Origin: an uncultured Gammaproteobacteria bacterium
GTDB taxonomy: Bacteria > Pseudomonadota > Gammaproteobacteria > Pseudomonadales > UBA5518
Reading direction: 5' to 3'
Assembly (NCBI GenBank): GCA_903928015.1
Contig: CAIYPF010000132.1
Coordinates: 5,138-69,137 of the forward strand
DNA: 64,000 nt
Below the pieces are notes generated by a model. It searched no databases, was not told the origin of the DNA, and saw only the letters and a program-made list of their open reading frames with translations. A program made the position numbers and the translations under genes. Of the stretch, positions 11,236-12,927 are shown piece by piece; within the stretch, counting starts at the first letter, position 1, and each line of letters opens with the position of its first letter.

Positions 11236-12927
11236 TCAGCGCAGCAGCGAGAGCACCATCCGCGGCATGGAGTTCGCCTGCGCCAGCACCGAGATGCCCG
11301 CCTGCTGCAGGATCTGGTTGCGCACCAGGCCTGCGCTCTCGGCGGCGAAGTCCGCATCCGATATCCGCGAACGTGCGGCAGTGACGTTCTCGCCGATGTT
11401 GGAGAGGTTCGAGATGGTGGACAGCAGACGGTTCTGCACGGCGCCCATCTCGCCGCGACTGCTGGTCACAAAGTCCAGAGCCCGGTCTATCGCCACCAGC
11501 GCGAGGGTGGGGTCGGAGGTCACGTCGATGGTCGAGATCGAGAGGTTCGCGGCGCTGAATCCGGAGAGGAAACTGCTGATCGTCTCGTTGGCGCTCGCCC
11601 CGACCTGGAAGGACACCTGCTCGGCTGCCACGCCGGATCCGGCGTCCGGGAAGATCACGTTCAGGGAGGTTGGTGTGTCGTCGTAGGTGTTGCGGTTCGG
11701 CAGCACGCTCTCGGCCGTGAGCACGGTGCCGCCGTCCGCGTCGAAGCCGCCTATCGCTCCCACGTCGCTGTTCGTCAGATTCATGGCCTGCACGAAAGCC
11801 GTGCCGGTCGCTCCCTTGAACGTGTTCTGGAAGGCGGTGAGCGCACCGCCCGCGCTGCCGCCGCCCCAGATATCGCCCAGTGCGAAGAGCGCGTTCCCCA
11901 GCGATTGGGTCGGGTTGGCGGCAAGGTAGCTCATGACTTCCTTGATGCCGGTGCCGCGCTGCGCTTTCAGCGTGGCGTGCATATAGGCCACGGCGGCATA
12001 GCCCGAGGAATAGGTGCCCGCGGTGCTGCCGTCGCCCAGCTTGGCGACCAGCGCGGCTGCGCTGCCGGCGGTAGCGATATCACTTGCCAGGCGTTCGTCC
12101 GCGCCGTGGATGAACTCCGCCGCGCCTTCGGTGAACCAGAGGTTCGTGTCGGTCGCGAGCTGGGTAAGGTTGGTGGTGCGCGCCATGAAGGCGTGGACCA
12201 TCTCGTGGGCGATGATGCGGTCGTTGTAGAGCGGGGCGTTGCCGCCGTTCGGGAGGTTCGGTGGCGTGAAATCGTCGAGGTCGATGTTGAGCGTCTGCGA
12301 GACCAGCGTGGTGCCCGCGTAGCCCGACTGCACCGAAGCCAGGGTGTTGCCGACGCCGCCGTTCACGAACTGCACCTGCAGGTCCGGCCCCCCGCTTGCG
12401 CTCAGCCCGTAGTAGGTCTTGACCCTGTCTTCGGCCTCCTGCAGCCAGTAGCTCTTCAGGCCGTCGACAATCGGCTGCTTCACCGGGTCGCTGATCTGAC
12501 CGCCGCGTCCCGCGAAGAGCTTGCGGCCGCCAAAGCTCGTCTGGTTGTTGATGCGGTCGACTTCCTGCAGCAGCTGGTTCACTTCGGACTGGATCGCGCC
12601 GCGCTCGCGCTGCTGCAGGGTGCCGTTGTTCGCCTGCAGTGCGAGTTCGCGTGCACGCTGGAGAAGGTCGTTCACTTCCTGCAGGGCGCCTTCCCCCACC
12701 TGCAGCATCGAGATTGCGTCGCTGGCGTTGCGGCGCGACTGGTCGAGGCCCTTCACCTGCGCCGTGAGCCGGCTGGATATCGACAGTCCGGCCGCGTCGT
12801 CGCGCGCGCTGTTGATGCGCGAGCCGGAACTCAGGCGCTGCAGGCTCACCCCGAGCGCACCACTGCTGGTGTCGAGGTTGCGCCGCGCCATGAGTGACGC
12901 GAGATTGGTGTTTATGCCCAGCGACAA
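11236..12927 (-). CDS. fliC: flagellin with a zinc-metallopeptidase (HExxH...E) module in the hypervariable region (flagellinolysin-type)
   Basis: TTG start at 12927 with GGAG 7 nt upstream. It has canonical flagellin N-terminal (LGINTNLASL...SGSRINSARDDAAGLSIS) and C-terminal (GAVQNRL...ISDADFAAESAGLVRNQILQQAGISVLAQAN) domains. The central region contains IIAHEMVHAF (nt 12193-12207) and WFTEGAAEF 22 residues later. Confidence 0.9.
   Translation of the reverse strand: MSLGINTNLASLMARRNLDTSSGALGVSLQRLSSGSRINSARDDAAGLSISSRLTAQVKGLDQSRRNASDAISMLQVGEGALQEVNDLLQRARELALQANNGTLQQRERGAIQSEVNQLLQEVDRINNQTSFGGRKLFAGRGGQISDPVKQPIVDGLKSYWLQEAEDRVKTYYGLSASGGPDLQVQFVNGGVGNTLASVQSGYAGTTLVSQTLNIDLDDFTPPNLPNGGNAPLYNDRIIAHEMVHAFMARTTNLTQLATDTNLWFTEGAAEFIHGADERLASDIATAGSAAALVAKLGDGSTAGTYSSGYAAVAYMHATLKAQRGTGIKEVMSYLAANPTQSLGNALFALGDIWGGGSAGGALTAFQNTFKGATGTAFVQAMNLTNSDVGAIGGFDADGGTVLTAESVLPNRNTYDDTPTSLNVIFPDAGSGVAAEQVSFQVGASANETISSFLSGFSAANLSISTIDVTSDPTLALVAIDRALDFVTSSRGEMGAVQNRLLSTISNLSNIGENVTAARSRISDADFAAESAGLVRNQILQQAGISVLAQANSMPRMVLSLLR

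Follow-up and report, generated by a model that had tools for sequence, protein, structure and literature searches.

Flagellinolysins are flagellins that carry a metallopeptidase module in place of the outer (hypervariable) domain. The founding member of the family, FliA(H) of Clostridium haemolyticum, lies on the filament surface and ranks second in abundance among the filament proteins of its host; its zinc ligands, its general base E234 and a hydrophobic-basement alanine were named, its activity is EDTA-sensitive and an E234A mutant is inactive (Eckhard 2017, PMC5595980). The calcium site of FliA(H) includes Asp206, located 27 residues before the first histidine of the HExxH motif. A second member, HgrFlaMP of Hylemonella gracilis, is a Zn/Ca-dependent protease whose full-length form was only slightly active in vitro next to the isolated domain (Eckhard 2020, PMC7643111), and it is able to cleave the flagellin of another species. 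Both characterised enzymes need Zn2+ and Ca2+ for activity, while incorporation into the filament with a surface protease has been shown for C. haemolyticum only. A Ca2+ site beside the active site was reported for both the collagenases and flagellinolysin, with an identity of about 13 % between the two (PMC5595980). Gammaproteobacteria were already given as a class commonly carrying flagellinolysins (PMC5595980). Here we report on a stretch of 64 kb from the contig CAIYPF010000132.1 of an uncultured gammaproteobacterium, hereafter the window, and on one gene on its minus strand at 11236-12927. With a probability of roughly 0.85 we read this gene as a flagellinolysin, that is a flagellin transcribed by sigma-28 (FliA), exported and assembled into the filament, with an outer domain that is a collagenase-related gluzincin zinc endopeptidase.

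The gene consists of an open reading frame (ORF) of 563 amino acids (aa) plus the stop codon. Translation starts at a TTG codon (12927-12925), preceded by the Shine-Dalgarno sequence GGAG 7 nt upstream (12935-12938, minus strand, read directly), and there is no alternative in-frame start between the upstream stop at 13065 and the TTG at 12927. On four public metagenome contigs, independent gene callers had arrived at the same 563-aa product. The identical protein is present on 7 metagenome contigs, and the exact protein was found only in metagenome assemblies and metagenome-assembled genomes (MAGs). An initial annotation, made from the letters of the window, had proposed a 563-aa ORF at 11236-12927 in a high-GC genome: the ORF is real and its coordinates were right, the strand had been left unstated and is minus. 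The plus-strand frame of the same interval was rejected as a different, spurious ORF with an unrelated translation. The GC content is 66.3 % for the gene and 66.8 % for the window, with a GC at third codon positions (GC3) of 0.88 in the gene. Because both values equal those of the window, the gene is regarded as native, and a recent horizontal transfer into this genome was ruled out.

Both ends of the protein belong to the filament core. Pfam Flagellin_N (PF00669) matched aa 5-141 (E 2.8e-42, 144 bits) and Flagellin_C (PF00700) matched aa 479-562 (E 3.3e-26, 92 bits). An AlphaFold2 model of the full-length protein, with a mean predicted local distance difference test (pLDDT) of 87.4 and values mostly above 90 within the insert, placed the flagellin helices at residues 5-34, 41-99, 106-129 and 473-553. 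On the minus strand the N-terminal D0/D1 region (aa 1-141) thus occupies 12505-12927 and the C-terminal D1/D0 region (aa 479-562, ending LSLLR) 11242-11493. The D0/D1 ends are complete and conserved as in structural flagellins, with 36-62 % identity to ordinary flagellins, in agreement with the canonical termini noted initially. Between them the protein matched the NCBIfam equivalog model NF033876 ('flagellinolysin') with a score of 399 bits, for which the cut-off is 205, and the matching aa 112-494 cover positions 1-384 of the 384 in the model. Pfam Peptidase_M9 (PF01752) matched the query with 26.0 bits (E 6.9e-6), exactly the gathering cut-off of 26.0; 54 of 59 relatives were matched as well, the best with an E of 6.8e-9. 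A profile search against peptidase families, as proposed in the initial annotation, hence returned one model above its cut-off and one at its threshold, and the flagellinolysin-type assignment made there was borne out over the full length of NF033876.

The metallopeptidase module replaces the outer domain at aa ~147-428 (11644-12489, minus strand), limits that were set by the extent of homology to the phage protein P0263 treated below. Within the module, HEMVH (aa 241-245, 12193-12207, minus strand) provides the predicted zinc ligands H241 and H245 and the general base E242 on a model helix spanning residues 235-251. The 'glutamate helix' WFTEGAAEF (aa 264-272, 12112-12138, minus strand) carries the predicted third zinc ligand E267 (12127-12129), 22 residues beyond H245, and the basement alanine A270. 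In the model, the outer domain shows a three-stranded beta-sheet (183-216), the HExxH helix and a helix with E267 (264-274) in this order, which on inspection we take to be the gluzincin arrangement. When 59 homologues sharing 46-60 % identity with the query were aligned, at a mean column identity of about 47 %, H241, E242, H245, A246, E267, G268, A270 and E271 proved invariant. Since the whole protein of 563 aa contains only 4 histidines and the catalytic residues are invariant in these homologues, the HExxH motif is not a chance occurrence. The motif positions, the spacing of 22 residues and the HExxH...E ligand set had been proposed before this analysis; each was found in place, and the ligand set together with the basement alanine is conserved throughout the alignment. 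Upstream of the motif, IDLDDF contains the aspartates D216-L-D-D219 (12271-12282, minus strand) as candidates for a Ca2+ site. Of the homologues, at least 90 % have D216 and all have F220. The two aspartates precede H241 by 25 and 22 residues compared with 27 for Asp206 of FliA(H), which is a comparison of spacing and not a residue-to-residue mapping.

The protein clearly belongs to a family that has been described and characterised biochemically and is annotated automatically, and the finding as such is not new. Searches of 5.8 billion proteins retrieved at least 120 clusters with the length and architecture of the query at 44-59 % identity, plus one fragment with 83 %. Many of these bear the NCBI name flagellinolysin, among them proteins from Motiliproteus, Oceanicoccus, Chitinivorax, Acidovorax, Methyloversatilis and Pseudomonadaceae. 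Among representative clusters at 50 % identity, 534 matched the central domain with an E of at most 1e-3, 316 with at most 1e-10 and 102 with at most 1e-30. The family is large and not rare, and the initial description of such genes as sporadic, given together with the correct family type, understated their frequency, as the 316 clusters at E<=1e-10 indicate. In a scan of genome contigs, most of the 80 loci were ordinary flagellins with the pattern INSAKDDAA, and about 10 were flagellinolysins, none with more than 48 % identity. The locus mainly bears out that environmental Gammaproteobacteria commonly possess flagellinolysins and that reading the sequence alone suffices to spot them. The relationship to the catalytic domain of M9 collagenases appears marginal and remote in sequence comparisons. 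Searching all PDB sequences with a profile of the central domain found ColT (4ar8) with a non-significant E of 0.18, HExxH and WFxEGxAEF being aligned; ColT was the only non-flagellin PDB sequence retrieved, the others were beta-hairpin segments of flagellins. A single-sequence phmmer search of the central domain against PDB sequences yielded nothing relevant, and no flagellinolysin was retrieved among the PDB chains.

A promoter of the sigma-28 (FliA) type is predicted upstream of the gene at 12963-12989 on the minus strand. It is composed of TAAAGTCC (12989-12982), an 11-nt spacer and GCCGACAC (12970-12963); the consensus for sigma-28 is TAAAGTTT-N11-GCCGATAA. On both strands of the window, the pattern TAAAG-N14-16-GCCGA occurred once, compared with 0.12 expected matches, and this sole match sits 36-62 nt upstream of the TTG codon, within the 121-nt gap after folD. 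Similar motifs were present at -60 to -63 upstream of five related flagellinolysin genes, those on L085 (metagenome), L086 (Motiliproteus), L087 (Oceanicoccus), L003 (Spongiibacter) and L007 (Colwellia). A predicted FliA-type promoter at a fixed distance would explain how an orphan flagellin gene among housekeeping genes remains coupled to flagellar assembly. TTG or GTG start codons were found in 6 of 12 flagellinolysin genes examined, including the window gene (12925-12927, minus strand) and its three closest relatives; the five starts besides that of the window are at L085:4561, L086:6001, L087:6001, L002:5989 and L007:5998. Flagellins are as a rule expressed at very high levels and seldom have such starts, which may keep the protease flagellin a minor component of the filament. 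Scans for terminators and for sigma-70 promoters around the gene found none, and the 89-nt region 3' of the gene folded no better than shuffled sequences (z = 0.72). Transcription may therefore read through into ppnP. In the publication on H. gracilis the word 'promoter' is absent and the relevance of the genomic context of HgrFlaMP is called unclear (PMC7643111). The modest additions of the present analysis are the predicted sigma-28-type promoter common to several gammaproteobacterial relatives, the examined orphan genes among them, and the frequent TTG/GTG starts in this clade.

The observations that weigh against the proposed reading concern the fold of the module on one side, and the expression and surroundings of the gene on the other. 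A Foldseek search with the full-length model against the PDB retrieved flagellar filaments only, with target-normalised template modelling (TM) scores of about 0.8 for core-only flagellins. As the matches run through the D0/D1 helices, this search is uninformative on the insert. The central domain was re-predicted alone with 16 sequences, and the confidence of this model was lower, with a pLDDT of only 75.5. Searched against the PDB it gave no match at E<=1e-3, and collagenase was absent from the listing; the superposition on collagenase or thermolysin proposed in the initial annotation was thus not recovered at significant scores. The best four PDB fold matches, all to M1 gluzincin peptidases, had E values of 0.2-0.6, probabilities of 0.28-0.80 and TMq values of about 0.3. 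Against the viral structures of BFVD no match was significant, and SprT and M61 zincins appeared weakly. The ranking of the fold matches points to a zincin fold for the predicted structure, none of them being significant. Since the fold comparison did not reach significance, the assignment to the family rests on the sequence profiles and the motif conservation. Likewise the Pfam M9 score of the query lies only at the threshold and not above it. The missing significant peptidase fold and the M9 score would suit an outer domain that kept a zincin-like fold and is catalytically dead or non-proteolytic, serving for example as an adhesin or a structural decoration. We consider this very unlikely: zinc ligands, general base and basement alanine are invariant across the 59 homologues, an invariance that at a mean column identity of about 47 % would hardly arise unless catalysis were selected for, and two members of the family are proven proteases.

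On the side of expression and surroundings, the TTG start may mean low expression, and no flagellar or chemotaxis genes are present among the other 40 of the 41 ORFs annotated in the window. An orphan gene outside any flagellar cluster, with a weak start codon suggesting low abundance and without a visible partner flagellin in 64 kb, is also what a soluble secreted protease would present, for which the flagellar type III system is an export route only and the D0/D1 helices act as secretion or chaperone signals with negligible incorporation into the filament. The minor in vitro activity of full-length HgrFlaMP compared with its isolated domain (PMC7643111) fits such a protein. Yet the D0/D1 regions are complete and conserved beyond the needs of a secretion signal, and the homologue of C. 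haemolyticum is placed on the filament surface in high abundance, which makes a soluble protease improbable here. The lack of flagellar genes in the window and the origin from an uncultured MAG could further be understood as signs that the organism is non-motile and the flagellin a relic which has ceased to be expressed or exported. Against a relic speak the intact ORF, the host-like codon usage (GC3 of 0.88), the intact Shine-Dalgarno and sigma-28 promoter motifs and the identical protein on 7 metagenome contigs, and among the alternatives we rate it the least probable.

We prefer a filament-assembled protease. From the observed gene, architecture, family membership, catalytic-residue conservation and promoter motif, the characterised relatives let us infer export, assembly and a Zn/Ca-dependent proteolysis with a preference for hydrophobic P1' residues. 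The gene would be transcribed in the late flagellar phase from its own sigma-28 (FliA) promoter, despite the housekeeping surroundings. Its D0/D1 helices would allow the product to leave the cell through the flagellar type III system and to polymerise into the filament. There it would co-assemble, probably as minor component as in C. haemolyticum, with a canonical flagellin whose gene lies elsewhere in the genome. Zinc would be held by H241, H245 and E267 with E242 acting as general base, and the Ca2+ site is probably near D216/D219. The filament would thereby display many protease active sites to the medium.

The gene adjoins folD (13049-13912) on one side and ppnP (10856-11146) on the other, followed by a gene for an ABC-F ATPase (9250-10836, minus strand, 528 aa), so that the housekeeping, non-flagellar surroundings described initially were found as such. 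The longest ORF of the ABC-F gene extends to 9250-10980 (minus strand, 576 aa, ATG) and overlaps ppnP; public gene calls and homologues back the 528-aa form starting at 10836. Near neighbours also include a methyltransferase and a sulfatase. Between folD and the sulfatase are two ORFs, 13916-14464 (minus strand, 182 aa) and 14560-15252 (minus strand, 230 aa), which were called on independent metagenome contigs and gave no match to Pfam; the former has an Ala/Leu-rich N-terminus and may begin with a signal peptide. Further out, the window encodes peptidases of the M28 and M19 families, a pyrroloquinoline quinone (PQQ) dehydrogenase and a cluster for the synthesis and export of polysaccharide. 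The polysaccharide cluster is large (28978-47486, minus strand) and comprises a Poly_export/SLBB protein (Wza-like), an ABC-2 transporter pair, several GT2/GT4 glycosyltransferases, one of them with both domains in 975 aa, and an 816-aa protein with TPR and sulfotransferase parts. It is followed by an M28 peptidase of the secreted type with a PA domain (47290-49674, plus strand). For the ABC-F ATPase, identities were 84-90 % to proteins from MAGs labelled as Gammaproteobacteria or Pseudomonadales and 80-82 % to the proteins of Pseudomonas, Halopseudomonas, Plasticicumulans and Marinobacter. These identities point to an uncultured Pseudomonadales-like gammaproteobacterium as host. In the MAG closest by ABC-F (90 % identity, GCA_016718385.1), the genes around ABC-F are completely different, and for this reason an empty-site comparison for an insertion event was not available. 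In the neighbourhoods examined, those of the three closest of the relatives above (L085, L086 and L087), the flagellinolysin genes are orphans too, in unrelated and non-syntenic surroundings.

The module is not confined to flagellins. The phage virion structural protein P0263 (706 aa) is encoded at 10001-12121 of L088, a 30-kb Logan contig (SRR10607548), and is homologous to 11644-12489 (minus strand) of the window. In the exhaustive search with the central domain it was the second-closest representative to the module of the window, with 71 % identity by phmmer, 64 % over a BLASTP alignment of 331 columns, and 72.7 % on the nucleotide level over 827 nt. The stretch of high identity corresponds to flagellin aa 147-428 approximately, exactly the outer domain; HExxH and WFTEGAAEF are intact, and the flagellin D0/D1 ends are lacking. 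The C-terminus of P0263 matches PHROG virion structural families as well as hypothetical proteins of the Pseudomonas phages F116, H66, phiC725A, Epa33 and 8P. All seven neighbouring genes tested match PHROG families, including a head closure protein and a tail lysin. The GC3 of its three parts is uniform (0.66, 0.70 and 0.64, versus 0.88 in the flagellin) and the ORF abuts its neighbours in the phage module, which ruled out an assembly chimera. In a neighbour-joining tree (calculated with no bootstraps) P0263 was sister to the group of the window protein and P0001, within the gammaproteobacterial flagellinolysins. This position suggests the capture of a flagellin outer domain by a phage. Should the phage copy be functional, a flagellin-derived protease would be present on the virion, for instance cutting flagellin or surface proteins during infection, and flagellar proteases and phage particles would stand in direct molecular contact or conflict. 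Among the 8 papers using the term 'flagellinolysin', none was on phages, judging by their titles. Of all the results, only this lead, which lies outside the window, might come as a surprise to specialists.

More distant forms of the module were present on the IMG/VR viral contigs L089-L101, which have a GC content of 32-42 % and are mostly 100-130 kb long. Twelve of them (L089-L100) encode tail proteins of ~700 aa with a C-terminal flagellinolysin-like module, 31-37 % identical to that of the window and characterised by HExxH...WFKEGxAE...DTGSxGG; in the neighbour-joining tree they form a deep, separate clade. In the two tail proteins checked, those of L090 and L095, the N-terminal part matches phrog_1887. 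The match in L101 is weaker and longer (948 aa, 28 % identity), and collagen-like GPP repeats are located at the C-terminus. The module also resides within proteins of 2,500-4,800 aa with RTX and Big_6 repeats. Among these are the giant RTX/Bap-like proteins P0307, P0332 and P0337 (2,900-4,794 aa), of which P0307 and P0332 match HemolysinCabind, Big_6 and BapA_N. Giant flagellins of ~1,000 aa (P0305 and P0315) combine the module with extra Flagellin_IN domains. The occurrence in giant proteins means that the module is not restricted to flagellins of ~560 aa. Its uptake into giant RTX adhesins and into virion and tail proteins of phages suggests flagella or surface proteins of other cells as possible targets of the protease. 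Tentatively, and at slightly less than even odds, the flagellinolysin protease may be seen as a mobile surface-display cassette that is not purely flagellar, with the lineage of the window as donor of the phage copy.

Compared with known systems, the protein shares the HExxH and xWFxEGxAEF motifs with the clostridial collagenases ColG, ColH and ColT (MEROPS M9), whereas its peptidase module sits inside a flagellin. The collagenases carry further domains that the query lacks. The active site corresponds position by position to that of FliA(H): H233, H237 and E262 equal H241, H245 and E267 of the query, E234 equals E242 and A265 equals A270, with equal spacings. FliA(H) originates from a Gram-positive anaerobe and is encoded within a flagellar cluster, and the window gene is found in neither setting. 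Nearer is HgrFlaMP, a protein of Gram-negative, proteobacterial origin with a size like that of the query, the same three-part architecture and HExxH...E motif, and a gene that is likewise an orphan among non-flagellar genes (PMC7643111). The flagellinolysin of a Hylemonella MAG (L008), taken as stand-in for HgrFlaMP, aligned end to end with the query at 44 % identity overall and 38 % in the module. The host of HgrFlaMP is a beta-proteobacterium (Comamonadaceae) in contrast to the Pseudomonadales-like gammaproteobacterium suggested here, and the neighbouring genes differ. By identity, the closest relatives are the metagenomic proteins P0001 and P0142 (about 83-85 %) and P0002 and P0003 (58-59 %), followed by the proteins of Motiliproteus sediminis (54 %) and Oceanicoccus sagamiensis (53 %). 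These closest relatives have the architecture of the query, orphan genes, the sigma-28-type motif (at -60 to -62 in the relatives) and TTG/GTG starts in common with the window gene, in neighbourhoods that are non-syntenic.

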